Source: Candidatus Asgardarchaeum abyssi
GTDB lineage: Archaea; Asgardarchaeota; Asgardarchaeia; Asgardarchaeales; Asgardarchaeaceae
DNA length: 64,000 bases
NCBI GenBank assembly: GCA_040225955.1
Contig: JBECUL010000003.1
Coordinates: 1-64,000 of the forward strand
Direction of reading: 5' to 3'
The notes under the pieces: generated by a model
The model's input: the letters and a program-made list of their open reading frames with translations, nothing else
Databases searched by the model: none
Told to the model about the DNA's origin: nothing
Position numbers and translations under genes: made by a program
Shown here: in pieces, positions 11,836 through 46,506 of the stretch
How the letters are laid out: the number at the start of each line of letters is the position of its first letter
Position numbering within the stretch: position 1 is the stretch's first letter

Positions 11836-12864
11836 TTAGTGATTATTTTCTTTATCCTTAATATGGGGAATTATTTCGTTTTTTAATAGTTTAAGAGTCT
11901 TGTTTAACTCTTTACCAATAGGATATCCTAAAACTAAATGTGTAATACCTACCTTGGCTTGTCTCTCTATTTTTTCAATGATCTCTTCTGGAGTACCAGT
12001 TAAAGAAAACCTATCGATCATCTCATCTGTGACCAACTCTTTTGCGGCATTAATATCTCCTGAGCTAATTAATTCCCGAATCTTAATAATAGCTTTAATA
12101 TCCTCGCATGTTCTTTCTAAGAATTCTATAGGGTGATAGTATAATACTTGTGCGACGGTTTTCTTTATCAGCTCTTTTGCCTCATTCAGATCCTTTGAAA
12201 TTGAACTATAGGTCCAATGAACTATACTAAAATTAGATAGGTCTTTATTTACCTTTTTCAATCCATCCATCAAATATTTTTTAGAAATCTCAATTATTTC
12301 CTCAGAGCAGGCACTTAAAATAACCCCATCTCCCAATCTCTCTGCAAGCCTAAGCATGCCAGCTCTCCTAGCACCAATGAATATAGGAATAGAAACAGGT
12401 GGATTCTTAAATTGTAGATTGCATACACTAAATGTTATACTTTTATGGGTAACTTTTTCACCGTTTAGTAATCTCCTTATTACAATAATTGAATCTTCAA
12501 CAACTCTAAGGGGCGATTTCCAACTTTTGTAACAAATTGATGAGAGCGGAAGTAAACCTCCCGCACCAATACCAATAACAACTCTACCATTCGATAAATC
12601 ATAGAGAGTTCTAAAAGCTCTTGCTATCATGGCTGGATGGCGTGTATATGGATTACAAATTGCTGTTCCAAGAGTTATTTGTTTTGTTGAAATAGCCAAG
12701 GCCGCTAGTGTAAGAAATGTATCATTGTAACTGCCAGCCGGATTTAAATCTGGAAGCATTATGCCATCAAAACCTGCTTTCTCAACAATAATTGATAACT
12801 CTATAAGCTCATTAATAGGCATTTTAGTTGATGGTCCAAATATGATCTTAATTGGCCTTTTCAC
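11836..12864 (-). CDS. LLM-class (Mer-like, probably F420-dependent) oxidoreductase, paralogue 1
   Basis: CNPYTRHPAMIA, SNGRVVIGIGAG, PIFIGA, GTPEE motifs. Confidence 0.85.
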   Translation of the reverse strand: MKRPIKIIFGPSTKMPINELIELSIIVEKAGFDGIMLPDLNPAGSYNDTFLTLAALAISTKQITLGTAICNPYTRHPAMIARAFRTLYDLSNGRVVIGIGAGGLLPLSSICYKSWKSPLRVVEDSIIVIRRLLNGEKVTHKSITFSVCNLQFKNPPVSIPIFIGARRAGMLRLAERLGDGVILSACSEEIIEISKKYLMDGLKKVNKDLSNFSIVHWTYSSISKDLNEAKELIKKTVAQVLYYHPIEFLERTCEDIKAIIKIRELISSGDINAAKELVTDEMIDRFSLTGTPEEIIEKIERQAKVGITHLVLGYPIGKELNKTLKLLKNEIIPHIKDKENNH

Positions 12865-13190: not shown

Positions 13191-13396
13191 CCAAAACACT
13201 CCTTGCATTAATAAATCAAATTATAAGTTCACTGCTCCATAATTTCCTTATGATCCATAATAATAGTGAATATATGAAAAAAGAGCATTAGGACATAAAT
13301 AATCGCAAAATTACTAAAAAGCAGATTAATAAGAGAGATAAAAAAAAGAAAAATAATTTCATTTTAGGAATTAAAGAATTAAGGAAACACAGATTG

Positions 13397-13873
13397 TTAC
13401 TTATCTACTTTCTTTTCCTCTTCCTTCTCTGGTATGTTTTTTGGCTTAGTGCTACTAGACAATTTATCTAATGCTTTTATTACTCCATCGATGATAGCTT
13501 GTGGTCTAGGTGGGCAACCTGGAATATAAATGTCTACTGGGATTATTTTGTCTAGAGGTCCTGCAAATCCATAATCTTCTCCAAATATACCACCAGAGAC
13601 TGCACAAGAACCAACCGCAATAACGCAAACAGGCTTAGGTGTCATCTCATAAATTCGTTTTAGTCGTTCCTTTATCGCAGTAGTTACTGGCCCAGTTACT
13701 ATTAATATATCAGCATGCCTTGGGCTACCTTTCTGAATAATGCCAAAACGTTCAACATCAAATCTAGGTGTCAATGCAGCTACGACCTCTATGTCGCACG
13801 CATTACAACCTCCAGCAGGTACGTGCATTATCCATGGTGACTTTTTTCTTGCCCATGAAATAATCTTACTCAT
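13397..13873 (-). CDS. Group 4 [NiFe]-hydrogenase small subunit (NuoB-like)
   Basis: GGCNACDIE, SPRHAD, GSCAVSGG, PGCPPRP. Confidence 0.93.
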   Translation of the reverse strand: MSKIISWARKKSPWIMHVPAGGCNACDIEVVAALTPRFDVERFGIIQKGSPRHADILIVTGPVTTAIKERLKRIYEMTPKPVCVIAVGSCAVSGGIFGEDYGFAGPLDKIIPVDIYIPGCPPRPQAIIDGVIKALDKLSSSTKPKNIPEKEEEKKVDK

Positions 13874-13882
13874 ATTATCACC

Positions 13883-15337
13883 TCAAAATGAATTTAATCC
13901 TGAAACCGCTTCAACGACAATAGATAGAAATATTTCTGGAAAAGCACTCGCTACAGCAATAAGTAATAGTAAAATGGCGATAGGAATAGTCATCTCTTTG
14001 GGCAACTTCTTTATGTCATCCCCATTTGCCATCACTTTTGGTTCACCGAAGAATATCATATGTGCTGCTCTTACAAAATATCCAACCGCAATCAAGCTTG
14101 CCACTATTGCCAAAATGGTTACCCAAATATAACCTGCTTTAAATGAAGCGTCGTATATTAAAAACTTACTATAGAATCCATTCAAAGGTGGTACACCGCC
14201 CATTGAAAGACCAGCTACTAGGAATGTAGTTGCTAGCAGTGGCATTTTTTTAACCAAGCCACCCATTTTTTTCATGTCTCTAGTCCCGGTTGCAAAGAAT
14301 AGGGCGCCACTGATGAGAAAGAGTGTGCTTTTAAGAAGACCATGATTGAAGATATCAAAAACGGAACCATATAATCCAATTTGTGTAGCAATACTAATTC
14401 CAAGTATAATATACCCTATCTCATCTATGCATGAATATGAAAGAAGCCTTTTTATATCTGTCTGTACCAGAGCGAATAAGGCTCCGAGAATCATAGTTGC
14501 TGTGCCAATTACAATAACAATTAGATAAAGATCTTGTGTCAAAATAGGGCTGAATGCATCAAATGTTCTTATTAGCGCAATAGCAGCGGTTTCTGTCATG
14601 ATACCACCAAGAATTGCACTAATTGGAGCTGGGGCCTCAGAATATGCGTCAGGGAGCCATGTATAGAAGGGTATAATACCCGCTTTAGCTCCAAATCCGA
14701 AGAATACAGAGAGAAAGATTATTTTTATTGCCATGACATTTGTAATTGTATTCTTATTGGCTTGCAGAAAAGAGTAGATATCATTATATGAGAATGAAGT
14801 TATGTTTAAAGTTACCATATAGGTAAGAGCTATAATTATCATTGCAGTTCCAAAACTGCAAATTATAAGGTACTTTAAACTCGCTTCAAAAGCCTCACTT
14901 GTATTCTCATGAGCTACTAGGAGTACGGAAAATATGGTTGCACCTTCTATGTATAAGTAAGTACTCAGAATATCTGCGGACATTACAGTACCTATCATTG
15001 CAAAAATGAACAAAGAATACCAGAAGTAGTATTTTTGTACCCTTTGGAGTTCTCCTTTTATAACTGGAATCGAGAAGTATGCAGCTGTTGTGGACAAAAT
15101 TAAAATCAATACTGTAATAAAACTACCTAATGTATCAATGTACAAATTAAACCAATATGTGGGATGAACTATCTTACTGTTTAACTGATATAATAGAATC
15201 AAAGAGAACACTAAAGCCCCAAGGTTCAGCAATGTTATGACTTTCCCTATATATTCCGCCTTTTTTATGAATATTGAAGCGGCACACCCCATTAGCAGTA
15301 GTATAAAAATTGCTATAATAAATAACTCTGTCACCAC
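13883..15337 (-). CDS. Antiporter-like membrane subunit (HyfF/NuoM/MrpD type)
   Basis: KAGIIPFYTWLPDAY, DIKRLLSYS, NHGLLKSTLF, GVPPLNGFYSK. Confidence 0.9.
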   Translation of the reverse strand: MVTELFIIAIFILLLMGCAASIFIKKAEYIGKVITLLNLGALVFSLILLYQLNSKIVHPTYWFNLYIDTLGSFITVLILILSTTAAYFSIPVIKGELQRVQKYYFWYSLFIFAMIGTVMSADILSTYLYIEGATIFSVLLVAHENTSEAFEASLKYLIICSFGTAMIIIALTYMVTLNITSFSYNDIYSFLQANKNTITNVMAIKIIFLSVFFGFGAKAGIIPFYTWLPDAYSEAPAPISAILGGIMTETAAIALIRTFDAFSPILTQDLYLIVIVIGTATMILGALFALVQTDIKRLLSYSCIDEIGYIILGISIATQIGLYGSVFDIFNHGLLKSTLFLISGALFFATGTRDMKKMGGLVKKMPLLATTFLVAGLSMGGVPPLNGFYSKFLIYDASFKAGYIWVTILAIVASLIAVGYFVRAAHMIFFGEPKVMANGDDIKKLPKEMTIPIAILLLLIAVASAFPEIFLSIVVEAVSGLNSF

Positions 15338-15954
15338 CTCAACCTCCTTAAGCTCCAGCTATCTATCGTACCAGTTTTTTGATACGTGTTTATCGCTAGG
15401 TAAAGTATAGTAACAACGATTCCAAGAAGTAAGCCATCTATGACCGTTAGTGCTAAAATCATCAAAAGTTCTGGCGCCTCATACTGGAGAGCATATAGAG
15501 AGAAAAACACATGTAGTGCACTATCGTATATTGTATATCCAATGGCCATTTTAATTAAATTGCCTTTAAGTATGAGTGCATAAGTTCCAACACCAGCCAA
15601 TGCCAATGCTATTGAAAGTTTCCAATCAACTACTGGAACTGCGAATAGCAAAACTGTTACTAAACCAACGGCGAATACTAGAGCTATCACTACTGTAGCA
15701 GTACTGAAATACTTTTCTTTCTCTTTAAAATCGATCTTTTGCGCTACCTTAATTATAAGCAAAGGTATTACAATGCCAACAACGATAAGATTTAATATAC
15801 TTCCTATAATCTCACCCTCTAGTATTGTTAACAATGTTGTTAAAATACCGTAAAGAGTAAGCGTAATTGCGACTCTTTTAAAGTGAGTAAGTTCCACAGT
15901 GACAGCTGCCACAACAACAGTTATATAAATTAGAGCAAGAGTTATCTCACTCAT
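15331..15954 (-). CDS. Small membrane subunit of the hydrogenase (HyfE/NuoJK-like)
   Basis: ~7 TM segments; C-terminal TGTIDSWSLRRLRW resembles NuoK/MrpC ends; overlaps both neighbours. Confidence 0.7.
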   Translation of the reverse strand: MSEITLALIYITVVVAAVTVELTHFKRVAITLTLYGILTTLLTILEGEIIGSILNLIVVGIVIPLLIIKVAQKIDFKEKEKYFSTATVVIALVFAVGLVTVLLFAVPVVDWKLSIALALAGVGTYALILKGNLIKMAIGYTIYDSALHVFFSLYALQYEAPELLMILALTVIDGLLLGIVVTILYLAINTYQKTGTIDSWSLRRLRW

Positions 15955-16498
15955 TGAGCATCATCCTCACTAAAATTTTTCGTCCAAGTGAAATATTCTC
16001 AACCTTTCCTCTGCAATCTGGGCACAACTCTAATTGCTTTCGTATTTCGTCTTCACTAATTTTGTGTTCTTTTAGAAGTTGTTGCATCCTTTCAAGTCCG
16101 CGATTGAACTGGGCAACAGTCATGAATGGCCTTCCGCAATTTCTGCATTTTAAAAGATCAAACTTAATTTCTATTACTTCTTCTTGAGTTGTAGAAGATG
16201 CAAGTTCGTACTCCTGAGTTAGGTGTATTCCATCTTCAGGACAAATTTCTTCACATCTTGCACAGAAAGTGCATTTCCCATAGAATAATGAAATTATTCT
16301 AACATCATCCTTATCTTCTAAACTCAATGCTCCAGATGGACATAATTGCACACATGCACCGCATCCGATACACTTTGATGGATCAAACTCTGGTTTCCCT
16401 CTGAATTTCTCTGGTGGTGGTGTTTTCTCAAAAGGATATTTCACCGTTGCAGGAGCTTTAAGAGCCTTAAAAACTTCAGTAATTATTTTCTTCTTCAT
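15947..16498 (-). CDS. NuoI/HycF-like 4Fe-4S subunit
   Basis: ATVKYP..FRG, CIGCGACVQLCP, CTFCARCEEICP, plus CRNC...CPDC. Confidence 0.92.
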   Translation of the reverse strand: MKKKIITEVFKALKAPATVKYPFEKTPPPEKFRGKPEFDPSKCIGCGACVQLCPSGALSLEDKDDVRIISLFYGKCTFCARCEEICPEDGIHLTQEYELASSTTQEEVIEIKFDLLKCRNCGRPFMTVAQFNRGLERMQQLLKEHKISEDEIRKQLELCPDCRGKVENISLGRKILVRMMLNE

Positions 16499-17499
16499 TA
16501 TATCACCCCTAATGCAAAAAGTGTCTCACCAACAAATCCAATAATTGCTAAGGGCAATATGTATTTGAAGTAAAACTTGTATCCCTGGTCTATACGGTAG
16601 CGTGGATTAATTGTTTCAAGAAGTGTAAGTAGAAAAACAACTAGAGCACATTTAATTAGGAATGTTATGATTGTTAGGTCTCCACCAAAGAACAATATAA
16701 CTGTAAGTGCTGGAATGATAAACCACTTAAAAACATTGGCTAGTTCAAAGATACCAAGAAGGCAACCTGAATACTCTGTTAATGGACCTGCAACTATTTC
16801 ACACTCCGCCTCTGGCATATCAAAAGGTTTAATTCGCAATTTGGGAAGGACGCATATTATAAAGACTGCAAATGTAATGAAGTGAAACACTGGAGCAAGA
16901 AAACCAAATGAGGAATTACTAGGAATCTCTAGAATGAAAGGACCATTAGATATTTGATATGTGAAAATGTCACTTAATCTTAAGCTCGAGACATGAAAAG
17001 CAACTGCTATCGAGGCTAAAGCAAAGGGTAATTCATAAGCTATGACAAGGTTAACTTTTCTGCTAGAGCCTATTGCAGCGTATGGTGATGGTGTACTAAA
17101 ACCAGCTAGTATTTCTGCAGCCTCAATCATGGCCAGAAGGTATATTATAAGGATTAAGTCTCCATAAAATGATAATGTGAATATAGAAACCGATGGTAGG
17201 ATAGATACTGGAATTGGTAACAGCCATAGAACAACTAATGCGCTGGATAGAGCCATTATAGGTGCAAATACAAAGATGAATTTATTTGCCATCGCTGGAA
17301 TTATTGTTTCCTTTGCAAATAACTTAATTAGATCAGCAAATGTCTGGTACCAGGGGGGTCCTACACGTGATTGAAATCTAGCTCGTAGTTTTCTGAACTC
17401 CCACCAGAATAATGAGCCCACAATAAAAGCAAAAAGGATTCCTGGGTAGATGAGAATACTTAATAAAAGTTCTAATGTTATTTGTATAACCATCTGCAT
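16498..17499 (-). CDS. NuoH/HycD-like membrane subunit
   Basis: RKLRARFQSRVGPP, PFDMPEAECEIVAGPLTEYSG, PRYRIDQ. Confidence 0.93.
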   Translation of the reverse strand: MQMVIQITLELLLSILIYPGILFAFIVGSLFWWEFRKLRARFQSRVGPPWYQTFADLIKLFAKETIIPAMANKFIFVFAPIMALSSALVVLWLLPIPVSILPSVSIFTLSFYGDLILIIYLLAMIEAAEILAGFSTPSPYAAIGSSRKVNLVIAYELPFALASIAVAFHVSSLRLSDIFTYQISNGPFILEIPSNSSFGFLAPVFHFITFAVFIICVLPKLRIKPFDMPEAECEIVAGPLTEYSGCLLGIFELANVFKWFIIPALTVILFFGGDLTIITFLIKCALVVFLLTLLETINPRYRIDQGYKFYFKYILPLAIIGFVGETLFALGVI

Positions 17500-18686
17500 T
17501 ATCTCCTCTTCCTCCTAAACATTTGTTCGAGTTTTTCAAATGTTACTACATACTCTTTGTTCTTTCTGCTATCAATAACTATAACCCTGTCTGTACATGA
17601 AAAACATGGGTCGACGCTCGCTAAGATTATAGGCACATCTGCTAATGTTTCGTCAATAAGCATCGGTTTTACAGAGGGTATATTCATATAGCTTGGTGTT
17701 CTTACTTTAACTCTTTCTGGTATATTTGTTCCGTTGGACTTTATGAAGTAGAAAAGCTCTCCTCTAGGGGCTTCACAGCGGCTCATAGCAATTCCTTCTG
17801 GAAATTCTTCAATCTCGACAGAAATAGGCCCCTCAGGAAGATCTTTAAGCGCTTGACGTATTATTTTCACAGACTCTACCATTTCATCATACCTAACTAG
17901 TACTCTTGCAAGAACATCACATGAGTCATAAACTGAGATTGACCATTCTATTTTGTCGTAGGCGTCATATGGATCATCTTTTCTTACATCTATCGCAATG
18001 GACGAGGCTCTTGCTGTAGGACCTACCACACAGTATTTTTTCGCAGTATTTTTGTCAAGAATGCCTATTTCCTTCACACGCGCAAAAATCAATGGGTCAC
18101 TCGTAAGTTCTTGTAATAATACTTTCAATGCTTTTTCTAAAGAGTCTAATTTCTCATTAATCCCTCTTGCTAAAGCAGGTGATAAGTCCCTTCGTACACC
18201 ACCAAACTTGTTATATCCATAATTTACCCTATTTCCAGTTAGCATTTCGAGAATATCTTGTACAATTTCTCTATCACGCCATACATGCATGAACAATGTA
18301 TCAAAGCCTATAATATGAAGCCCTACACCAAACCATAGCAAGTGGCTATGGAGTCTCTCAAGCTCAAGCATGATTGTTCTTAGATATTTCGCACGCTCAG
18401 GTATCTCAATTCCAACAAGTTCCTCGACAGTTTGACAAAATGTATTTGTGTGCACACCACTACATATACCGCACACACGTTCAAATAAGAATATATCTCT
18501 CCAATAAGTTCTACTCATTGCTATTTTTTCAATTCCTCTATGAGTATATCCTACTTTTATATCAGCATCTATGATTCTTTCACCTTCTACTTCGAGCTTA
18601 AAGTACTCTGCTTCTTTCAGTGCTGGGTGATAAGGACCAATTGGTACAATAAAAGAATGATTTTTACTCACTTTTACTACCCCCAA
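17499..18686 (-). CDS. Group 4 [NiFe]-hydrogenase large subunit
   Basis: L1 ERVCGICSGVH and L2 DPCFSCTDR with a cleavable C-terminal extension; likely start is GTG at 18671. Confidence 0.95.
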   Translation of the reverse strand: MGVVKVSKNHSFIVPIGPYHPALKEAEYFKLEVEGERIIDADIKVGYTHRGIEKIAMSRTYWRDIFLFERVCGICSGVHTNTFCQTVEELVGIEIPERAKYLRTIMLELERLHSHLLWFGVGLHIIGFDTLFMHVWRDREIVQDILEMLTGNRVNYGYNKFGGVRRDLSPALARGINEKLDSLEKALKVLLQELTSDPLIFARVKEIGILDKNTAKKYCVVGPTARASSIAIDVRKDDPYDAYDKIEWSISVYDSCDVLARVLVRYDEMVESVKIIRQALKDLPEGPISVEIEEFPEGIAMSRCEAPRGELFYFIKSNGTNIPERVKVRTPSYMNIPSVKPMLIDETLADVPIILASVDPCFSCTDRVIVIDSRKNKEYVVTFEKLEQMFRRKRR

Positions 18687-19554
18687 TAATTTCTAAAAGA
18701 GCATCCGCTTTTACTCTATGCATTTTTAACAATTCACCAACATTGGGAAAATCAAAGGCCATTGCAAGAAGTTCCATTAGATGTATTACCGGAATACCAA
18801 ACTCCTCGCCAAACATTTTTTCTATCGTTTTTTGTTCGAAGTCTAATTGGTAATAACATGCAGGGCAGGTTACTACTATACAATCCGCTCCGCTCTCCTT
18901 GATCATTTTGAATTTTTGATAAGTCAAATTCTTTAATGCAAAATTATAATCATATTGTGATAGCGGATAGCCGCAACACATTCTTTCAGAACCATATGTT
19001 ACTATTGTTGCGCCAGTGGCTTTCACCACCTCATCAAAATATCCTGGCAATTTCCATATGTTATCAGGATCCCCAGATGTAAACAAGTGGCATCCATAGT
19101 GCATTGCAACTTTTAGGTTATTCAATGGCTTTTTAACATGCTTTTTTATTTCTTCGATGCCTATATCATTTACAAGTACCTCTAAAAAGTTTAAGACATG
19201 CGTCGTTCCTTGATATTCACGCCCAATGCTTTTTAGTCTTTCATTAATTTTCTGTTTAAGCTCAGGAGAATGCTCTAATTCAAGTTCTGTATCATGTAGG
19301 GTTTCATAACATCCATTACATATAGCCATCAAATTTTGCTTTTTCTCTTCTGCTATAGATAAGTTTCGTGCGGCTAGTGTTAGCCAGAGATCCCAATCTG
19401 CAACTTTAGATATAACTGGCTCTGGACAGCAAGAGAATCCCTCCGCATCATTAATTTTGACTCCTAATTCCTCAAAGACTTTTCGAGATGCAACTTCAAT
19501 GTTTAAAAACCTAGTAGATATCAGACATCCCCAGAAAACTATATACTCCGTCAT
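18664..19554 (-). CDS. hdrB: Heterodisulfide reductase subunit B-like (two CCG domains)
   Basis: FWGC, SCCPEP, CNGC, HYGCH, MCCG, CPAC..QLD: all ten HdrB cysteines present. Confidence 0.88.
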   Translation of the reverse strand: MTEYIVFWGCLISTRFLNIEVASRKVFEELGVKINDAEGFSCCPEPVISKVADWDLWLTLAARNLSIAEEKKQNLMAICNGCYETLHDTELELEHSPELKQKINERLKSIGREYQGTTHVLNFLEVLVNDIGIEEIKKHVKKPLNNLKVAMHYGCHLFTSGDPDNIWKLPGYFDEVVKATGATIVTYGSERMCCGYPLSQYDYNFALKNLTYQKFKMIKESGADCIVVTCPACYYQLDFEQKTIEKMFGEEFGIPVIHLMELLAMAFDFPNVGELLKMHRVKADALLEIIGGSKSE

Positions 19555-20216
19555 TTGTACCTAAGCCCTCCTTTCTTCCAATCAAATCCAACTTTTTTAT
19601 CGTACCCAACTTTTTTGATCAATTCATGAATCTCTTTTACAGATTCCTCCTTTAATGAGGCCACTGGCAGTTCTGGTGGAAGATTCATGCGTTCTCTTCT
19701 TCTTATAGTTGAGCTCGTAAATGGTATTGGCTGTCCTGTCATAATTAGTTCACTTACTACCTTTCGATGGGGCTTTGGAACGATTCCTTCCATAGGCTTT
19801 CTAAGTGGATATTTCCCTTCAGGCCACTCATAAGGTAGAATGATTCTTCTAAAGTCTGGATGTCCATTAAATTTCAACCCGAAAAGATCATGAATCTCAC
19901 GTTCGATCCAGTTTGCACCAGGTAAAATCGATGCTAATGAATCGATTTCATTAACGTCTTTTGGGACACGCGTTCTTAAACTTATAATACTTTTATTAGC
20001 CTCAAAGTGATACAGTAATTCAAAATCTAGCCCATCGTCCACACAAGATATTGTTATTAACCGGATGTCCTTTTCCACTAGCAATTTTGCTGCCTTTATA
20101 ATCGCTGATCTTTCTATGTCAATAATATATTTTTGTTCTTTAATTTTCTGTAAGCCTGAGATATAATCGCCAAGCTCTTGTTTAAGAATCTCTATCACAT
20201 CATCAGCCAACAACAT
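19551..20216 (-). CDS. NuoC-like subunit with C-terminal extension
   Basis: WIEREIHDLFGLKFNGHPD...YPLRK motif followed by ~80 extra aa. Confidence 0.9.
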   Translation of the reverse strand: MLLADDVIEILKQELGDYISGLQKIKEQKYIIDIERSAIIKAAKLLVEKDIRLITISCVDDGLDFELLYHFEANKSIISLRTRVPKDVNEIDSLASILPGANWIEREIHDLFGLKFNGHPDFRRIILPYEWPEGKYPLRKPMEGIVPKPHRKVVSELIMTGQPIPFTSSTIRRRERMNLPPELPVASLKEESVKEIHELIKKVGYDKKVGFDWKKGGLRYK

Positions 20217-20223
20217 TCACCTC

Positions 20224-22173
20224 CTAAATCATCAGTAAGTATATTAATATCATAACAATCGCTGCGATGGCAATGTACACGTTTAGATATCCTATTTGTA
20301 TTCTTCTAAGCTTGTTACTGAACCAAATAAGCGCTCTACCTATACCAAACCATAATCTATCAAGGCCTCCTTTTTCCATGACCTTATATAAGCGACCAAA
20401 GAGAATCTTCGGAGAGAAGAAGAAAGCACTAGGATCAGGGCGTGTTTTTTCCATGGATAAGTAAGGTTCATCTACTTCTCCACCAGTAAAGATACCGAAT
20501 TTTCCTTCTGTCTCAGTGAAATGTCTAATGGTACCAAGTCTATAAGCAATAAATCCTAATAGCAAGGAGAATGTCAAGAGTATAACTATTAACGCTGCAT
20601 AGTATCCACCAACCGCACTAGCGACATATCCCAATGTAGATACAGTAAGAGTACCCCCAGCTAATGTTATTGCAGCTGGAATGATCAAGTAATTCAATGG
20701 GATATATGGTGCAATACCAAAAATGATACAAATGAGTGCTAAGACTACCATTGTTACTTGCATAGGTATGGGCACTTCTTTTACATTTTCCAACTTCGTA
20801 GGTCTTGATCCAAAGAATGCAGAAAATATAAACTTCATGACTCCTGCAAAGGTCATAGCACTGGCAAATATTGCAAAGATGCCATAGAATAAGTAAAGCC
20901 CTCCAATAGCTCCACCCATTGCTAAGCCAACACTTATTGCGGCCTCGTATATCATGAATTTACTAACAAAACCATTTAATGGAGGTATTCCTGATATAGC
21001 TAAGGCTCCTATAATACATGAAGCTGCCGTTACGGGCATATTTCTAGCCAATCCACCCATTTTTCGCAGATCTTTAGTCTTAGTTGCATATATTAGGCAA
21101 CCTGCTCCTAGGAATAATAGGCCTTTTATGAATACGTGATTAAAGAGATGGAAAAGCCCAGCAGCAATACCAAGAGTAGTTCCTATCCCGATAGCAAAAA
21201 ACATATAGCCAATTTGAGTGATCGTTGAGTATGCTAGGAGCCTTTTTACATCATTCTGAGCAATCATTGCAAATGAAGCAACAGCCATTGTTATGATACC
21301 AACAGTTGAAACAATAATGTTCCATTGTATCGTTATTGGGTATAGTAAATATACTCGCGCAATTAAATAAACACCAGCTTTTACCATTGCCGCTGCGTCC
21401 AATAGAGCTGTTAGTGGAGAGGGTGCCACTGTGGCATCTGGCAGCCAAGTGTGTATTGGAAACTGAACAGATTTAGCCATAGCTGCAACTAAATATAAGG
21501 CCAATATTATATTTAATGCAACTTGAGCGTCTTCTGGAAGTTGCGAAATTGCTGTAGGTATCTCTGAGTAAACTGTAGTTCCGGTGAGAAAGAAAGTCCA
21601 TATAGCACCAATAAGTAATCCAACACCTCCAGCATGTGTCAACATAATTGCCTTAAAGGAACCATGTAAGCTTTCAGGCTTTTTATAATAAAATCCAATT
21701 AGGCTGTAGGAGCATATTCCAACGATTTCCCAGAAAATGAACAGTAGTATTAGATCACCTGCAAATGCAAGTCCTATCATAGAACCGATAAATGTCAACA
21801 TTAGGAAATAAAACCTAGGAATTCCCTCTTCATGAGCCATATCTGCTGTTGAATAAAGTAAATCAAAGGCTCCAAAGAATGAAGCTGCGATGCCTATAAT
21901 TAAACTCAAAGCATCTACATAGAATGTGAAGCTGGTTCCTATCAATTTAGGAGCTACTAGAGGGATTATACTTGTTGACAATGTAGCTATAATTACTCTA
22001 TTGTTGAGTATAACCTCTGGTATTAAGAGAAAAACAATTCCTGCACTTATAAATACAAGTATAGTAGAATACCAACCAACTAACTTCTTTGAAAATTTCC
22101 CAATCAATGGCGTGAGAAATGCACCCAACATAGGTATTCCAACAGCCAAGTATACTAGTAATCCATAATCCAC
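20224..22173 (-). CDS. Antiporter-like membrane subunit (HyfB/NuoL/MrpA type)
   Basis: KSVQFPIHTWLPDA, MVKAGVY, KRLLAYST, C-terminal lateral helix and TM. Confidence 0.92.
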   Translation of the reverse strand: MDYGLLVYLAVGIPMLGAFLTPLIGKFSKKLVGWYSTILVFISAGIVFLLIPEVILNNRVIIATLSTSIIPLVAPKLIGTSFTFYVDALSLIIGIAASFFGAFDLLYSTADMAHEEGIPRFYFLMLTFIGSMIGLAFAGDLILLFIFWEIVGICSYSLIGFYYKKPESLHGSFKAIMLTHAGGVGLLIGAIWTFFLTGTTVYSEIPTAISQLPEDAQVALNIILALYLVAAMAKSVQFPIHTWLPDATVAPSPLTALLDAAAMVKAGVYLIARVYLLYPITIQWNIIVSTVGIITMAVASFAMIAQNDVKRLLAYSTITQIGYMFFAIGIGTTLGIAAGLFHLFNHVFIKGLLFLGAGCLIYATKTKDLRKMGGLARNMPVTAASCIIGALAISGIPPLNGFVSKFMIYEAAISVGLAMGGAIGGLYLFYGIFAIFASAMTFAGVMKFIFSAFFGSRPTKLENVKEVPIPMQVTMVVLALICIIFGIAPYIPLNYLIIPAAITLAGGTLTVSTLGYVASAVGGYYAALIVILLTFSLLLGFIAYRLGTIRHFTETEGKFGIFTGGEVDEPYLSMEKTRPDPSAFFFSPKILFGRLYKVMEKGGLDRLWFGIGRALIWFSNKLRRIQIGYLNVYIAIAAIVMILIYLLMI

Positions 22174-22175
22174 AT

Positions 22176-22658
22176 TTATCCCTCCGCCACAACCTTATAT
22201 GCGATTGCTAATTGTTTCTTTGCTTGTTCTCTCGGTACCAACTGTAATGCATAAGTCGGGCAAAACTTTACACATTCTGGGTCGCCATCGCAAAGATTAC
22301 ACTTTTCCGATATTCTAGCATTAACGTCAAACCATGGTACAGAAAGTGGACACATCATGTTGCAGAGGCGACATCCTATACACTTAGCAGGTTGAATTCT
22401 CACGATCCCAGTATTTTCATCCTTCACTATAGCATCTACTGGACATACTGCCATACAAATTGGGTCGTCACAGTGGTGACAATATATGGCTTCAAACCTT
22501 AGAGTTTTTAGATCAAAATATATACGAATATTCGACTTGGATAGATCTACAACTCCAAAGTGCTTATGAGAGCAAGCTATCATGCAGAAACGGCAACTTA
22601 CACATCTATCCGAATCATGAACAAGAACCATTTGCTCTGTTTCATTCGTCATTTGCAA
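22176..22658 (-). CDS. Polyferredoxin (HycB/CooF/DmsB-like), first gene of the hydrogenase operon
   Basis: CVSCRFCMIAC, CHHCDDPICMAVCP, CIGCRLCNMMCP, CNLC...CVKFCP. Confidence 0.92.
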   Translation of the reverse strand: MQMTNETEQMVLVHDSDRCVSCRFCMIACSHKHFGVVDLSKSNIRIYFDLKTLRFEAIYCHHCDDPICMAVCPVDAIVKDENTGIVRIQPAKCIGCRLCNMMCPLSVPWFDVNARISEKCNLCDGDPECVKFCPTYALQLVPREQAKKQLAIAYKVVAEG

Positions 22659-22959
22659 TCTCGCTCGCTATTATTTTTTGACAAGGTTTGATTATTTTTC
22701 GTTGATAGAGATTATATAACTTTTTATTAAAAAGTCTAAAAAGAGTCGATGAATATTTTTCTAATTATTGGCACTTTCCAAAAAAAATAAATTGTTTTAA
22801 CATCTTCTACAATATTTTTTATTTATTTTCTACAGATTTAGTTTAAAACAAGTTTCATTATTATTGCCATTACTAAAAGATAAATATGGATATTATTGTA
22901 AATATCCTCAATAATACTGTCGTTAAACATAAAAAAAGCATAAAAAAATTGTTAATTTA

Positions 22960-24350: not shown

Positions 24351-26150
24351 TTATTCTTTATAACTCCAACCTCTAAGCTTGTAATATTCTCTAACAAACT
24401 CCTCAACATCTATAGTTTTCGGAATATCACACACATATCTTGGAACAACTTTAAATCTTAGAGGCAGTAATTCGTCCTCCTTAGAAATTCCAATCTTCTC
24501 ATTAAATTCTCGTTTCAAACTAACAATCTTCTCTCCTATCTTTAACATATCTTCTAAAGATATTTCTATTCCAGTTACGGCCTCATAAAATTCTGGCACT
24601 AACGATGGTGGTGTTTGACCTGCCCATGATTCAAAGGCAAATAAACAGAAAATCATAGACTCAACAACCTCTGTGAAGTCTTCAGTAATGACAACAGCCC
24701 TTGCAACATCATACGGTGTTGGATCTTCGATTTGCTCTATTCCAAGGTCGGGATTTCCATATATTAGAAATCCTGCGTCGGCACGGCTATGATCTGGGCC
24801 GTAGGGGCTAATTGCATATTTTAATCCCATCCCTATATACGTTCTTGGATCATGCATTGGAATAGCATCATTCTTAACAACAATAAAGCTATCTTTTGAT
24901 TCTGGACCTAAAGTTTCAATTATTTTTCTGGGTCCCTCTGCAATTATATTGCCGAAACCAATTCTTTTAGCAATCTTATCAATAACATCCAAAATTGCAT
25001 CTCCGCATCCCCACTTTAAAGATATATCCTCTTTTTCTAAAAGGCCTTTTTCTTGCAGCTCTGTTAAAGCTGCTATTATCGATCCAGTAATAATGGTGTC
25101 CATACCATATCGGTTACATAGCTCATTAGCCTTTATGAGAGGCTCTACCTCGTTAATGAGGTTTAAACTGCCCAATGCAGCTAAACTTTCGTACTCAGGG
25201 CCTTTTTGTTTCTCAGCTTTAAACTTTCCTTCTTTAATTTCTACTATGACCTTGCATGCAACTGGGCAATTAAAACACGCCTTATGCTGAACAAAATAAC
25301 CCTTATTCTTCATTGTAATAACACTAATATTTTGTGCATTTTTCACATCCCAATCATCTAAGAGCCAGTTCTTAAGAGGCAAATCCTTTTTTCTAAGTAG
25401 AAATGATAAATCTCCTCCAGTCCCACCTTCAGAGATGAATTTTATCCCTGGTTTCTCTTTTATAATTTTAAGTAATTGCTTATTGAGCTCTTTGACTTTA
25501 TCTGGGTCATAAACTCTAACTTTATTAGTTCCGCGAACTACAATTGCCTTTAACTTTTTGGCACCCATAACAGCACCAAGACCTCGTCTACCAGCAGCGC
25601 ATCCCATATCGTTTAGTATAGATGCGAATCTTACTAAATTTTCACCAGCTTGGCCGATAGTTAAAACTTTACTCTTCTCTCCATGAATCTTCTTTAGGTA
25701 AATCTCTGTTTCATAAGTATCTAGTCCCCATATTTCGCTCGCATCATTTAATTCAATTTTATCATCAAATATAGATATATAAACTGGTTTTTCACTAGCC
25801 CCCTCAACGATTATTGCGTCGTAACCAGCAAATTTTAACTCTGCCCCCCAAAATCCTCCAGCGTCAGATTGTCCCCAAAATCCCGTCAGCGGGGATTTTG
25901 CAGAAATAATATGTCTTCCAGTCATAAATACCGACGTTCCAGTAAGAGGCCCTACTGCGAATACTAACTTGTTATTTGGAGATAGTGGATCTACCTTTGG
26001 ATCAACTTCTGAGGTGATTATCTTTGTTGCAAAGCCAACTCCACCAAGAAACTCTTTGATTATACCATTTTTCAAATCTTCAACTTTAATATCACCCGAT
26101 GATAGATTTATCCTTAAGATTCTTCCGCAGTACCCATAATATTCAATCAT
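24351..26150 (-). CDS. aor: Tungsten aldehyde:ferredoxin oxidoreductase family protein
   Basis: KSPLTG, GRRGLGAVMG, CFNCPVAC, GPEYE, MHDPR; ATG at 26150 follows a GGTG RBS. Confidence 0.92.
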   Translation of the reverse strand: MIEYYGYCGRILRINLSSGDIKVEDLKNGIIKEFLGGVGFATKIITSEVDPKVDPLSPNNKLVFAVGPLTGTSVFMTGRHIISAKSPLTGFWGQSDAGGFWGAELKFAGYDAIIVEGASEKPVYISIFDDKIELNDASEIWGLDTYETEIYLKKIHGEKSKVLTIGQAGENLVRFASILNDMGCAAGRRGLGAVMGAKKLKAIVVRGTNKVRVYDPDKVKELNKQLLKIIKEKPGIKFISEGGTGGDLSFLLRKKDLPLKNWLLDDWDVKNAQNISVITMKNKGYFVQHKACFNCPVACKVIVEIKEGKFKAEKQKGPEYESLAALGSLNLINEVEPLIKANELCNRYGMDTIITGSIIAALTELQEKGLLEKEDISLKWGCGDAILDVIDKIAKRIGFGNIIAEGPRKIIETLGPESKDSFIVVKNDAIPMHDPRTYIGMGLKYAISPYGPDHSRADAGFLIYGNPDLGIEQIEDPTPYDVARAVVITEDFTEVVESMIFCLFAFESWAGQTPPSLVPEFYEAVTGIEISLEDMLKIGEKIVSLKREFNEKIGISKEDELLPLRFKVVPRYVCDIPKTIDVEEFVREYYKLRGWSYKE

Positions 26151-26192
26151 TATTAACACCACCGAGATTTATGCATAGATTTAAATGAATAT

Positions 26193-27200
26193 TCATTTCT
26201 TAAAAACAGGAATTACTTCATTGCCTATTAATTTCAAAGCCTTCTCTATATCTTTGCCCAGAGGATATCCAAAGACTATATGCGTAACCCCTAAATCTAC
26301 CATTCTCCTTATCTTCTTAATAATCTCCTCTGGTGTTCCAGTCAATGAAAAATCGTTTATTATATCGTCTGTTATAAGGTTAGTTGCTTGCTCGCTTTTT
26401 CCCTCGTCCATGAGTTTGTATATTTTAATAATTACATCTGTCTCATGTCCTGCTTCCTTTAAAATTTCCATGGGCTCTCTGTAAATAACTGCAGGCATGT
26501 GCGGCTTAACAAATTCTTTTGCCTCATCAGAATCTTCAGATATTGAGCTATACATCCAATTTGCAATAGAAAAGTTCGAAGGATCACGTCCCGCTTTTTT
26601 AAGTCCTCTCATCACATACTTTTTTGAGCAATCAATCATTTTCTCAGAACAGGATCCAAAGATCACACCATCGGCAATTTTCCCACTAAGTGTTAACATC
26701 TGAGGCCTTCTTGCACCAATAAATATAGGCACGTTAACTGGCTCATCTTTGAATTGCAGATTGCAAACTCTAAAATTATAACTCTCCATACTTAGTTTTT
26801 CTCCACGTAAAAGTTTTCTAATCGCAATTACTGCATCTCTAACAGTAGCTATTGGCTTATTCCACATCTCATAACACAACGGAGGAAGAGCGGATCCACC
26901 ACCAGCTCCTATACCAAGTATAACGCGACCGTTAGAAATAGAATATAATGTTCTAATAGTTCTTGCTATCATAGCGGGATGTCTTGTATAGGGGTTGCAG
27001 ATTGATGGCCCAACAATAACTTTTTTTGTTGCAAGAGCTATTGCTGCAAGTGTAATGAAGGTATCATTACAATCATAACTAGGATTCAAATCAGGAAGCC
27101 ATACATAGTCAAAACCTAATTTTTCAGCCTCAACAGACCACTTAACTATATCCTCTATAGGGAAATGTGTATATGGACTGAATACAAATTTCACGCTCAT
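26193..27200 (-). CDS. LLM-class (Mer-like, probably F420-dependent) oxidoreductase, paralogue 2
   Basis: Same motifs as, and clearly paralogous to, 11836-12864. Confidence 0.85.
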   Translation of the reverse strand: MSVKFVFSPYTHFPIEDIVKWSVEAEKLGFDYVWLPDLNPSYDCNDTFITLAAIALATKKVIVGPSICNPYTRHPAMIARTIRTLYSISNGRVILGIGAGGGSALPPLCYEMWNKPIATVRDAVIAIRKLLRGEKLSMESYNFRVCNLQFKDEPVNVPIFIGARRPQMLTLSGKIADGVIFGSCSEKMIDCSKKYVMRGLKKAGRDPSNFSIANWMYSSISEDSDEAKEFVKPHMPAVIYREPMEILKEAGHETDVIIKIYKLMDEGKSEQATNLITDDIINDFSLTGTPEEIIKKIRRMVDLGVTHIVFGYPLGKDIEKALKLIGNEVIPVFKK

Positions 27201-33900: not shown

Positions 33901-33990
33901 TAAATAATTAATAATATCTACATCAGCAAGCAGATTAAACTTAAATATCAAGAATAATAAGATGAAAAATAATGCCTACTGGTGTTTAAA

Positions 33991-35850
33991 ATGTATAAGA
34001 GCTATTATGGTAAAATTTTAAGGATAAATTTAACTGACCAAAAGATTTCCACTGAGAGCTTATCGAATGAACTTATAGAGAACTACGTTGGCGGGATGGG
34101 GTTCGGTATTAAAATCCTATTTGATGAAGTCGACCCTAGAATAGACCCACTAGGTGTCGAAAATAAAGTAATATTCTCCGTGGGTCCTATAACGGCTACA
34201 AAGGCTCCTATGTTTGCACAAACATGTGTTGTAACAAAATCACCTCTTACGAATACTATTTTGAATAGCTATGCTGGTGGTACCCTAGGTTATTATTTCC
34301 GAAAATCTGGATATGATGCTGTAATAATCGAAGGTAAGTCCGAAAAACCAGTTTTTATTAGCATATTCGATGATGAGGTTGATATTCGAGCAGCAGAGGA
34401 TATCTGGGGTAAAGGTTCTCAAGAAAGCCAAAAGATCATAAAAAAGAAGTTAGAAGGTTTAAAGGTTCAAACAGCTGTTATTGGGCAAGCTGGTGAAAAT
34501 CTCGTGAGACTTGCTAGTATAGTTACTGAATCAAGAACATTTGGAAGAGGTGGTGCTGGTGCAGTTCTTGGAAGTAAATTATTAAAAGGAATTGCAATTG
34601 GTGGGACTCAAAGTATTGAACTTTACGATGAGGAAAGCTTCAATAAATATTGTAATGAAGCATTTGAGTTAATCAAAAAAGAAATCTCAAATCCGCAAAC
34701 TCTTTTAGCTGGTTTTTCTAATATAGGAACTATGGCGGGAATCGACTTGCTCAACCAGATGGGGGCTATGGCAAGTAGAAACCACCAAACAGGTGTTTGG
34801 CATGGTATAAATGAGGTAAATTCAACGACGTTTAAAGAAAAATATCATGTTTCACATACGGCATGTTTTGGATGTCCTGTGCATTGTGGAAAAAAGAATC
34901 GGGTTAAGACAGGAAAATACGCTGGTTTGATTCAGGAGGGACCAGAGTACGAATCGATATACGCCTTAGGAACAGAATGTGATATTAGAGATCCAGAAGC
35001 ACTAATAGTAGCTGACTTTTTATGTGATGATTTTGGATTGGACACACTAACCACCGGAGTATTAATAGCCTATACTATGGAAGCCTATGAGAGAGGATTT
35101 ATTACGAAAGATCAACTAGATGGTCTTGATTTGCGCTTTGGCAATCATGAAGCCGAGTTAGAAATGATTAGAAAAATAGCATTTCGCGATGGTATTGGAA
35201 ATATTTTAGCGGATGGAATATTAAACGCAATTAAGCATTTCGGTGAGGAAACAAGGTCTTTTGCTATGCATGTTAAGGGACTAACTTTTGCAGCTTGGAT
35301 GCCTAGAGTCCTAAAAGGTATGGCTCTAGCATTCGCAACGGCTAACAGGGGTGCTTGTCATAAGAGAGCTATAATCGGTATGGAAGTTATGGGGATTGTA
35401 GAACCACAAGCAACAAAAGGAAAAGGAAAACTAATTAAAGAGATTCAGGATAAGGTTAATGCTATATTTACATTAATAGGTTGTCGTTTCAGCGAATTCG
35501 TGTATCCTGTGGATCTCTATGTTAATCTTCTGAACTCTGCAACTGGTCTGAATTATACTAATGAGAAATTTATGAAACTTGGTGAACGAATATGGAACCT
35601 TGAAAGAGTATTTAACGTTATTAATGGATTCACAAGAAAGGATGATACTCTCCCAGAGCGGTGCTTTGAGCCATTGCCAGAAGGACCAAGTAAGGGATAT
35701 AAACTTACAAGAGAAGAATTTAACGAAATGCTGGACGAATATTATGCCGAGCGAGGATGGAGCAAGGAAGGGATTCCTACAAGGGAGAGACTTAAAGAAT
35801 TAGGAATAACTTATGCATATGATAAAATGAAGAAATTCGCATCTGGATAA
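33991..35850 (+). CDS. aor: Tungsten aldehyde:ferredoxin oxidoreductase family protein
   Basis: KSPLT, GRGGAGAVLGSK, CFGCPVHC, GPEYE, RGACH; ATG at 33991 follows GGTG. Confidence 0.92.
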   Translation: MYKSYYGKILRINLTDQKISTESLSNELIENYVGGMGFGIKILFDEVDPRIDPLGVENKVIFSVGPITATKAPMFAQTCVVTKSPLTNTILNSYAGGTLGYYFRKSGYDAVIIEGKSEKPVFISIFDDEVDIRAAEDIWGKGSQESQKIIKKKLEGLKVQTAVIGQAGENLVRLASIVTESRTFGRGGAGAVLGSKLLKGIAIGGTQSIELYDEESFNKYCNEAFELIKKEISNPQTLLAGFSNIGTMAGIDLLNQMGAMASRNHQTGVWHGINEVNSTTFKEKYHVSHTACFGCPVHCGKKNRVKTGKYAGLIQEGPEYESIYALGTECDIRDPEALIVADFLCDDFGLDTLTTGVLIAYTMEAYERGFITKDQLDGLDLRFGNHEAELEMIRKIAFRDGIGNILADGILNAIKHFGEETRSFAMHVKGLTFAAWMPRVLKGMALAFATANRGACHKRAIIGMEVMGIVEPQATKGKGKLIKEIQDKVNAIFTLIGCRFSEFVYPVDLYVNLLNSATGLNYTNEKFMKLGERIWNLERVFNVINGFTRKDDTLPERCFEPLPEGPSKGYKLTREEFNEMLDEYYAERGWSKEGIPTRERLKELGITYAYDKMKKFASG

Positions 35851-45687: not shown

Positions 45688-46506
45688 TTGATGCAACTAG
45701 CTGGGATGAGTATGAAATTCGAAGTTTTTGGAATACATACCCCATTAATTACTGAAAATGATAACCTTGTGGATGTTCTTTTGACTTCCTTACAAGATAT
45801 GGGACTGACAATAGAAGATAATGATATCGTTGTTGTTGCTTCTTCCGTTGTTTCGCTTGTTGAAAAGCGAAAGGTGAAGGTATCTGAAATAAAACCATCC
45901 CAAGAGGCAATTGAACTTGGCGAAAAATACAAAATAGACCCAAAATTTATGCAACTTATAATCGATGAGTCCAGCGAAATAATAGGTAAGCCAAAGGGAT
46001 TAAAGGGATTTCTACTAACAATTAGGAAAGGGATACCATGCGTAAATGCGTGCATTGATATGTCAAATGTACCTCAAGGCTACTATCTATTACCCCCTAA
46101 GGACCCAATGATATCAGCGAAGAGAATTAGAGAGGAAATAAAAAAGCGAACTGGGAAAAAAGTAGCTGTGATAATCGCAGATAGTGGAATTCTCCCAAGC
46201 AAAAAAGGAACTGTTGGTGTGGCCTTAGGTTTTTCTGGGATTAAACCTGTTAGAAATTATGTAGGTAAAAAGGATCTTTACGGACGAGTATTAAAAGTTT
46301 CAAGGCAATCCATGGTGGATTTGTTAGCATCTGTGGCCGAAATTGTAATGGGCGAGGCCGATGAGAGAATACCATTTGCCTTAATTCGTGGAGTACCTGC
46401 AGAATTTACTGATGAGGATATATCCCTTGAAGAGAGTATCATGCCACCAAATGAATGCATGTTCATGAGTATCATGCTATCCAAGGTCAAAGAGGAAGAG
46501 CAGTAG
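45688..46506 (+). CDS. cofE: Coenzyme F420:gamma-glutamyl ligase family protein
   Basis: NACIDMSNV, VIIADS, GVALG, KDLYGRVL, MGEADERIP. Confidence 0.88.
   Translation: MMQLAGMSMKFEVFGIHTPLITENDNLVDVLLTSLQDMGLTIEDNDIVVVASSVVSLVEKRKVKVSEIKPSQEAIELGEKYKIDPKFMQLIIDESSEIIGKPKGLKGFLLTIRKGIPCVNACIDMSNVPQGYYLLPPKDPMISAKRIREEIKKRTGKKVAVIIADSGILPSKKGTVGVALGFSGIKPVRNYVGKKDLYGRVLKVSRQSMVDLLASVAEIVMGEADERIPFALIRGVPAEFTDEDISLEESIMPPNECMFMSIMLSKVKEEEQ

Follow-up and report, generated by a model that had tools for sequence, protein, structure and literature searches.

An 'Ehd-like' group 4 hydrogenase operon of Candidatus Asgardarchaeum abyssi with an embedded HdrB and an HdrC-derived tail on NuoC

The window analysed here is a 64,000-nucleotide stretch of Candidatus Asgardarchaeum abyssi (GenBank assembly GCA_040225955.1, contig JBECUL010000003.1, positions 1 to 64,000), in which ten tightly packed open reading frames (ORFs) on the minus strand, from 22658 to 13397, encode a group 4 [NiFe]-hydrogenase with an HdrB-like subunit in its midst. 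An earlier note, made from the sequence of this DNA, had drawn attention to an intact HdrB inside a membrane-bound group 4 hydrogenase operon, and we confirm that observation. We consider it probable (about 0.6) that the ten genes specify a single complex-I-like hydrogenase of the 'Ehd-like' kind, with a disulfide-reductase module on its peripheral arm, that transfers electrons from H2 (or ferredoxin) to a disulfide and pumps ions. The kind is already in print, Asgard archaea included, and the window holds one more intact copy. What is added here is that the apparently missing HdrC survives as an arm fused to NuoC, that the window has this fused layout in common with TACK archaea and not with most Asgard copies, and that the tie to methyl transfer is removed.

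The operon and its HdrB subunit

Neighbouring genes of the ten overlap by up to 23 nt or are at most 9 nt apart. Read in the direction of transcription, the Pfam families of the first five products are Fer4_11, Proton_antipo_M/N, Complex1_30kDa, two CCG domains, and Complex1_49kDa with NiFeSe_Hases, and those of the last five are NADHdh, two Fer4 domains, Oxidored_q2, Proton_antipo_M and Oxidored_q6; this is exactly the ten-gene order that the earlier note had reported (polyferredoxin, HyfB, NuoC, HdrB, large subunit, NuoH, NuoI, HyfE, HyfF, NuoB). A complete group 4 subunit set, comprising NuoB, NuoI, NuoC, NuoH and antiporter-like proteins, is recognised by Pfam and NCBIfam within the one operon, and four of the operon's subunits are strongly hydrophobic. 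With all ten genes and all catalytic and cluster-binding motifs in place, the operon is intact. A TATA-like box (TTATATAA; 22712..22719, minus strand), read from the sequence about 60 nt 5' of the ferredoxin ATG at 22652, is a candidate promoter for the operon, and a T-rich run past the nuoB stop codon (13339..13356, minus strand), read in the same way, is a likely, putative end of the transcription unit.

The hdrB gene (18664..19554, minus strand; 296 aa, Pfam CCG twice) lies between nuoC and the large-subunit gene and overlaps both, as had been described. The overlap with nuoC is 4 nt (ATGA), and that with the large-subunit gene is 23 nt if the latter begins at a TTG and 8 nt if it begins at the GTG at 18671; the GTG is the more likely start because a 99% identical database protein has 390 aa. 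All ten cysteines of the two CCG domains, which the earlier note had called intact, could be located (C10, C42, C43, C79, C82 and C155, C193, C194, C230, C233), and they are invariant or nearly so across 25 relatives. The profile of the HdrB family matches the solved HdrB proteins 8rvu_b and 5odc_B over the full length (positions 3-291) with an E-value of about 1e-111, whereas its next-best match to a CCG protein is at 6e-8.

The [NiFe] large subunit (17499..18686, minus strand; 390 aa with the probable GTG start) contains both NiFe-ligand motifs, RVCGICSGVH at residue 70 and DPCFSCTDR at residue 359, in agreement with what had been noted. Its best solved relatives are HycE (7z0s_E, 2.5e-87) and MbhL (6cfw_L, 4.5e-77), whereas group 1 and 3 hydrogenases are matched only at 1e-11 to 1e-13. 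The protein continues past DPCFSCTDR with a 28-aa C-terminal extension (17499-17585, minus strand), as in HycI-processed HycE, and the genome has two homologues of the HycI-type maturation protease, on contigs C50 and C85.

Iron-sulfur clusters are predicted in several of the other subunits. The NuoB-type small subunit (13397..13873, minus strand; Oxidored_q6) keeps the four cysteines of the proximal [4Fe-4S] cluster in CNAC, GSCAVSGG and PGCPP. The NuoI subunit (15947..16498, minus strand), which is HycF/HyfH-like, carries two CxxCxxCxxxCP motifs for two [4Fe-4S] clusters, and the NCBIfam model of the formate hydrogenlyase Fe-S subunit spans its residues 5-169; a C-terminal CxxC...CxxC motif (CRNC ... 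CPDC) falls within the NCBIfam HycF/HyfH models and seems typical of NuoI of the formate-hydrogenlyase type. The first gene of the operon (22176..22658, minus strand; probable start ATG 22652; Fer4_11) has four [4Fe-4S] motifs and is predicted to encode a four-cluster 'wire' ferredoxin of the HycB/AorA type. Its best solved relatives are the Fe-S subunit of aldehyde:ferredoxin oxidoreductase (AOR; 8c0z_C, 6e-26), the WOR5 Fe-S subunit and HycB3 of HDCR, and HycB of formate hydrogenlyase (FHL; 7z0s_B) is matched at 2e-17. The ferredoxin is the first gene in nearly every related operon for which upstream DNA is present, the exception being one NC10 locus where nuoB and nuoI precede it. The ferredoxin is thus most similar to partner Fe-S subunits of tungsten enzymes of the AOR family (8c0z_C, 6x6u_B), and at a distance of no more than 13 kb there are two AOR genes (24351-26162, minus strand; 33982-35850, plus strand). 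A pairing of the ferredoxin with these AOR genes was considered and set aside, as no AOR gene is found within 10 kb of any related HdrB-linked operon and the ferredoxin is kept there.

The membrane arm is made up of an antiporter-like subunit of 649 aa (20224..22173, minus strand), which is NuoL/HyfB/MrpA-like by Pfam (Proton_antipo_M and Proton_antipo_N) and NCBIfam (NuoL, Mrp A); a NuoH-like subunit of 333 aa (16498..17499, minus strand; NADHdh, NCBIfam NuoH); a HyfE/NuoK-like subunit of 207 aa (15331..15954, minus strand; Oxidored_q2, NCBIfam hydrogenase 4 membrane subunit); and a second antiporter-like subunit of 484 aa, HyfF/NuoM/N-like (13883..15337, minus strand; Proton_antipo_M, NCBIfam Hyf B/F and NuoM/N).

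The C-terminal tail of NuoC

The NuoC-like subunit (19551..20216, minus strand; 221 aa) has its Complex1_30kDa domain at residues 33-142. An AlphaFold2 model of the protein is confident (pLDDT 87), and residues 1-145 of the model match complex I NuoC, the N-terminal domain of HycE and MbhK, with Foldseek recovering the NuoC domain alone. Elsewhere in this genome NuoC is encoded three more times, and each copy ends near residue 145, as does NuoC in nearly all of the 400 genomes sampled from the phylum of the window, whereas the extra residues, about 80 in number, are kept in every HdrB-linked operon. A profile of the tail, which takes up the last 88 or so residues of the window's NuoC (19554..19817, minus strand), matches the cluster-free C-terminal part of solved HdrC proteins (8rvu_c 109-184, 8rvv_C and 5odc_C 107-182) with E-values of 4e-13 to 8e-13, and the single NuoC sequence matches the NCBIfam HdrC model TIGR03290 at positions 78-143 (E 4.5e-6). 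These sequence profiles, on which the homology rests, indicate that NuoC ends in the C-terminal tail of HdrC and that HdrC is not simply missing. The earlier statement that there is no hdrA or hdrC holds for the window as regards full genes, but an HdrC tail is present, fused to NuoC. In the same way, the idea that the polyferredoxin or NuoI replaces HdrC has to be amended: the tail survives on NuoC, but the two-cluster ferredoxin domain of HdrC is gone, and the HycB-type ferredoxin is a plausible stand-in for it. Neither HdrA nor HdrE is encoded in the operon.

A scan with the HdrB alignment of one genome per prokaryotic species yielded 80 HdrB loci, and all of their ORFs were searched with the tail profile. 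At all 40 hydrogenase-linked loci the tail forms the C-terminus of the NuoC ORF, is free of any ferredoxin motif and lies directly 5' of hdrB. At some 24 unlinked loci it mostly ends a 170-200-aa protein with two CxxCxxCxxxC motifs that is likewise encoded directly 5' of hdrB, and which is an ordinary HdrC; at two of these loci the tail-bearing protein precedes a second copy of hdrB. A search of 1.84 billion representative proteins yielded only some 16-22 clusters that span NuoC together with the tail, and the fused family is therefore small. A full-text search of the accessible literature for HdrC together with NuoC found no description of a NuoC::HdrC-tail fusion, which is weak evidence of absence.

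In the HdrABC structure the tail of HdrC wraps HdrB, and for this reason we read the NuoC::tail fusion as a device for holding HdrB on the hydrogenase. The HdrC-derived tail, a putative docking arm, would clasp HdrB onto NuoC as the tail of HdrC does in HdrABC, and attachment of HdrB is the most likely role of the fusion. The simplest history would be the insertion of an hdrC-hdrB pair between the genes for NuoC and the large subunit, with NuoC coming to replace the ferredoxin domain of HdrC.

Distribution, descent and published relatives

Synteny around the 80 loci was assessed by tblastn with the ten proteins of the window. The ferredoxin, NuoC, HdrB and large subunit are found in the same order and orientation at about 40 loci, from Bathyarchaeia, Nezhaarchaeales, Methanomethylicia, Hadarchaeum and NC10 bacteria. 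The full membrane form, in the order ferredoxin, HyfB, NuoC, HdrB, large subunit, NuoH, NuoI and NuoB, is present in Bathyarchaeia, in one Nezhaarchaeales metagenome-assembled genome (MAG) and in one Methanomethylicia MAG. A membrane-less form, in which the ferredoxin, NuoC::tail, HdrB and the large subunit are followed by a protein of about 300 aa that appears to be a NuoB::NuoI fusion, occurs in many Bathyarchaeia, one Hadarchaeum and two Methylomirabilota/NC10 bacteria (loci L001, L005-L008, L010-L023, L034 and L045). A canonical hdrC-hdrB pair comes after the membrane-less operon at L007 and L008, and a second hdrB does so at L028.

The HdrB tree places every hydrogenase-linked copy in a single clade, distinct from the canonical HdrBs (SH-aLRT 98). 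When a second Asgard layout, described below, is included, all 43 linked copies fall on one side of a branch, with a support of 96.8, from 41 free copies. The single clade therefore points to one recruitment of HdrB, retained since, from which all hydrogenase-linked HdrBs would descend. Insertion of hdrB as a one-off event, which the conserved nuoC-hdrB-large subunit order had been suggested as a way of checking, is ruled out by the roughly 40 syntenic loci in several phyla and by the single HdrB clade. Together with the NuoC arm, conserved synteny and common descent bear out the core of the earlier note, that HdrB belongs as an integral subunit to a group 4 hydrogenase of the membrane-bound type.

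The closest named large subunits are those of Bathyarchaeia and Nezhaarchaeales (55-61% identical), and the HdrB of the window is 43-47% identical to HdrBs of TACK-archaea operons with the fused layout; its closest named relatives are labelled Odinarchaeota. The closest relatives overall (P0007, P0008/P0128) show 71-81% identity. Among the 400 genomes of the phylum sample, the fused NuoC was found only in the genome of the window and in one other, G004, which has the same ten-gene layout; the extra HyfE-like and second antiporter-like genes between nuoI and nuoB are common to these two only. In G004 (locus L113, G004:C1, 8793-12766), genes for an A/V-type ATP synthase (subunits I, C/AC39 and c) lie divergently beside the operon. 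A large-subunit search of the same sample revealed that the commoner layout of the phylum (families f12 and f32) is instead ferredoxin, mini-HdrC, HdrB, short NuoC, large subunit, one antiporter-like subunit, NuoH, NuoI and NuoB. The stand-alone mini-HdrC, seen in the two f12 loci that were examined, consists of the tail only, without an Fe-S motif, so a tail-bearing gene stands directly 5' of hdrB in these f12 operons too, and probably in those of f32. At L146 (G099:C5) and L147 (G093:C46) the ferredoxin gene region overlaps at its end with the mini-HdrC ORF, and the tail may be either free or fused to the ferredoxin. The fused layout of the window is thus typical of TACK archaea and not of most Asgard copies, and it could reflect either transfer or ancient inheritance.

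The earlier note had mentioned that hydrogenase-hdrBC clusters had been proposed in some methylotrophic archaea, and hydrogenase-Hdr clusters have indeed been published as Ehd, Ehe, Drh and Ehg and as the Asgard groups 4l/4q. Ehd, Ehe, Drh, Ehg and 'Ehd-like' complexes were reviewed as 'HdrB-interacting' group 4 hydrogenases (Kohtz et al. 2022, PMC9723716), with Ehd, as credited there to Borrel et al. 2019, in Methanomethylicia, Ehe in Culexarchaeia, Ehg in Nezhaarchaeia, and the 'Ehd-like' cluster in Bathyarchaeia, Methanomethylicia and one Culexarchaeia MAG. An Ehd-like complex was also described in relatives of cultured Methanonezhaarchaeia (PMC12700198). In Asgard archaea, groups 4l/4q 'with a peripheral heterodisulfide reductase domain' were reported as MBH-like complexes, that is, resembling the membrane-bound hydrogenase (MBH), of deep-branching Asgardarchaeia, Baldr-, Hermod- and Odinarchaeia (Appler et al., bioRxiv 10.1101/2024.07.04.601786).

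Like Ehd and the Ehd-like complexes, the operon of the window joins HdrB(C) and an antiporter to a [NiFe]-hydrogenase of the membrane-bound group 4 type, an arrangement for which coupling of H2 oxidation, disulfide reduction and ion translocation has been proposed. It is described by the published definition of Ehd-like, namely group 4 genes, HdrB(C) and an antiporter in one cluster (PMC9723716), and the operons that its HdrB and large subunit resemble most are those of Bathyarchaeia, Nezhaarchaeales and Methanomethylicia in which the order is likewise ferredoxin, HyfB, NuoC, HdrB and large subunit. It differs from Ehd in that its host appears to be a non-methanogen (McrA and ComA were not found) and in the HyfE-like and second antiporter-like genes added to its membrane arm. 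Compared by description, its architecture fits that of the Asgard groups 4l/4q, whereas most HdrB-linked operons of the phylum encode the separate mini-HdrC in place of NuoC::tail. Drh, the 'disulfide-reducing hydrogenase' of Methanocellales (Lyu & Lu 2015, as reported in PMC6046458 and PMC9723716), is also an HdrB-linked hydrogenase of the group 4 type, but according to these reports it is without an antiporter, whereas the window encodes four membrane subunits; the membrane-less operons of Bathyarchaeia, Hadarchaeum and NC10 resemble Drh more closely.

The likeness to HdrABC-MvhAGD (PDB 5ODC, 8RVU) lies in the full-length homology of HdrB, with both CCG motifs, and in the retained HdrC tail. 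Unlike that complex, the operon has no HdrC ferredoxin domain and no HdrA, and its electron partner is a group 4 and not a group 3c hydrogenase. Electron bifurcation is unlikely because the operon lacks HdrA or any flavin subunit. FHL/Hyf of E. coli (PDB 7Z0S) and MBH of P. furiosus (PDB 6CFW) are the closest solved relatives of the large subunit, NuoI, the ferredoxin and the HyfB/E/F-like subunits. Their peripheral partners are FdhF and free ferredoxin, respectively, whereas in the window this place would be taken by HdrB; no molybdopterin enzyme, such as an FdhF-type formate dehydrogenase, is encoded in the operon according to Pfam. As a further difference, NuoC of the window is a separate protein with the HdrC tail and is not fused to the large subunit.

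Proposed function and genomic setting

The function that we consider most likely is the oxidation of H2 (or ferredoxin) with a disulfide as acceptor, by a complex that needs neither cytochromes nor quinones and has an arm for pumping ions. Electrons would pass from the NiFe site over the NuoB cluster, the two NuoI clusters and the four ferredoxin clusters to the two non-cubane clusters of HdrB, with the HycB-type four-cluster ferredoxin substituting for the lost ferredoxin domain of HdrC. In the net reaction H2, or reduced ferredoxin entering at the ferredoxin subunit, would reduce a disulfide to two thiols, and H+ or Na+ would be translocated by NuoH, the HyfE-like subunit and the two antiporter-like subunits. 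Electron transfer from H2 to a disulfide is strongly exergonic for CoM-S-S-CoB-like couples (about -414 mV versus about -140 mV). The same direction has been proposed for Ehd (PMC9723716), and the A/V-ATPase genes beside the operon in G004 were counted in favour of the reading as a whole.

The genome (2.64 Mb, 189 contigs, 93% complete) was searched for genes that bear on the substrate. McrA (PF02249), ComA (PF02679) and DsrC were not found in it, and each of these searches was positive in at least one control genome. Use of CoM-S-S-CoB, the disulfide of coenzymes M and B (CoM and CoB), is not indicated by McrA or ComA, other routes to CoM and the synthesis of CoB being outside the search. Because McrA and ComA were not found in a genome of this completeness, the substrate here would be some thiol cofactor or protein disulfide and not CoM-S-S-CoB. 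A canonical HdrA/MvhD-HdrC-HdrB set is encoded on contig C14 and an MvhD-hydrogenase-HdrB set on contig C85; the organism therefore has Hdr enzymes without the methanogen heterodisulfide, like other Asgard archaea. Of the genes for which the earlier note had recommended a look at the whole genome, those for mcr (McrA) and CoM synthesis (ComA) were not found, but canonical hdrAC was present, on C14. A lipoyl protein has been suggested as the substrate of Ehe (PMC9723716); the genome has two GcvH homologues, on other contigs, and nothing ties either of them to the operon. Three further group 4 hydrogenase-like operons, all without HdrB, are found on contigs C1 (77-89 kb), C2 (89-99 kb) and C21 (11-20 kb), which gives four complex-I-like hydrogenases in a genome of 2.6 Mb. 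Each of the three has a short NuoC, and those on C1 and C2 have a HycB-like ferredoxin nearby. Several AORs are also encoded in the genome.

A number of points weigh against the proposed function. To our knowledge neither purification nor assay of such a complex has been reported, and we infer the association of the subunits, the substrate, the direction and the ion coupling alike. The HdrB scores 270.3 bits on the NCBIfam CoB-CoM HdrB equivalog TIGR03288, below its cut-off of 345.15. A quick tree of the large subunits, which contained one wrongly extracted row (L050), has an unresolved backbone as to whether the HdrB-linked large subunits form one clade. Finally, in complex-I-type machines the coupling chemistry takes place at the NuoD/NuoB/NuoH interface, where the NiFe or quinone site lies beside NuoH. 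The drop in energy between H2 and the disulfide would lie far out on the peripheral arm, which leaves pumping in this direction mechanistically unproven.

This last point is met by the rival reading that survives best, although we regard it as distinctly less probable: the complex would be mainly a ferredoxin-oxidising, H2-evolving and ion-pumping hydrogenase like MBH, with coupling at the NiFe site, the established mechanism for the family, and HdrB would be a side branch. As such HdrB might, with the same limited probability, act as a redox valve or second sink that draws electrons from the same Fe-S wire whenever there is a disulfide to reduce, or as a thiol-driven input at very low H2. The relatedness of the large subunit to the H2-evolving HycE and MbhL, the HycF-like NuoI and the HycB-like ferredoxin all fit such a hydrogenase, as do the three other group 4 operons of the genome and its several AORs, which make reduced ferredoxin. 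However, that the HdrB clade is single, ancient and strictly retained, and has a docking arm of its own, speaks for a central and not an accessory role, and the membrane-less versions retain HdrB and lose the pump, which suggests that the HdrB chemistry is the conserved core.

It is improbable, in our estimate, that the CCG protein is not a disulfide reductase at all and instead acts on another substrate or a quinone-like carrier, or serves as a pure electron-transfer module, like SdhE, LutA, GlcF, GlpC and LdhH. The score below the equivalog cut-off would agree with this, as would the weaker NCBIfam matches of HdrB to models of the SdhE-type anchor, LdhH, TfrB, GlcF and GlpC and the negative ComA and McrA searches. 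These points are set against the full-length match to solved HdrB, far stronger than that to the next CCG protein, the presence of all ten cluster cysteines and the retention of an HdrB-specific partner element, the HdrC tail.

The earlier note had also suggested that the complex, lying directly downstream of a methyltransferase island, might regenerate a thiol methyl acceptor. The island, which comprises a pyrrolysine-free MttB, two MtmB and corrinoid genes, ends 300 nt upstream of the operon on the same strand, and URO-D, a family that includes methylcobamide:thiol methyltransferases, is represented by one gene in the genome. That gene, the sole member found, is on contig C18, away from the contig of the operon; the related operons, that of G004 included, have no gene for MtmB, MttB or a corrinoid protein within 10 kb; T-runs, read from the sequence as two terminator-like runs of seven T just past the mtmB stop codon (22931..22948, minus strand), and the TATA-like box separate the two units; and Mcr and CoM synthesis genes were not found. 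On the synteny of the related operons and the intergenic signals we reject a functional tie to the island, and a role in regenerating its methyl acceptor is very improbable.

If the H2 (or ferredoxin):disulfide function is correct, a complex-I-like pumping hydrogenase and an Hdr disulfide reductase are united in one enzyme without flavin, quinone or cytochrome, and in an organism that apparently does not make methane. Such an enzyme would be informative about the links between H2, thiol/disulfide couples and ion gradients that preceded quinone respiration, as well as about Asgard hydrogen metabolism, and the main question for the whole family is the identity of its disulfide. More tentatively, the HdrC tail may be a transferable docking module through which HdrB became attached to a group 4 hydrogenase in a single event early in the history of archaea, with three layouts (NuoC::tail, mini-HdrC and membrane-less) arising later and moves between TACK, Asgard and NC10 lineages; the result here might be an H2:disulfide respiration that conserves energy with one enzyme, uses a thiol cofactor and involves neither quinone nor cytochrome. 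Were that so, this type of hydrogen metabolism would matter for hydrogen-based models of the archaeal host of eukaryotes.

Other genes of the window were also noted. Two genes for luciferase-like oxidoreductases of the F420-dependent type flank the operon region (11836-12864 and 26193-27200, both on the minus strand), and a gene for F420-0:gamma-glutamyl ligase is located at 45688-46506 (plus strand), so F420 metabolism seems prominent in this stretch. An ORF of 2075 aa (38973-45200, plus strand) has as neighbours a beta-propeller/FG-GAP protein (37139-38752) and a glycosyltransferase. The product of a 215-aa ORF at 51230-51877 (plus strand) has a weak match to small GTPases of the Arf family (E 9e-6), which fits the Asgard origin of the DNA.

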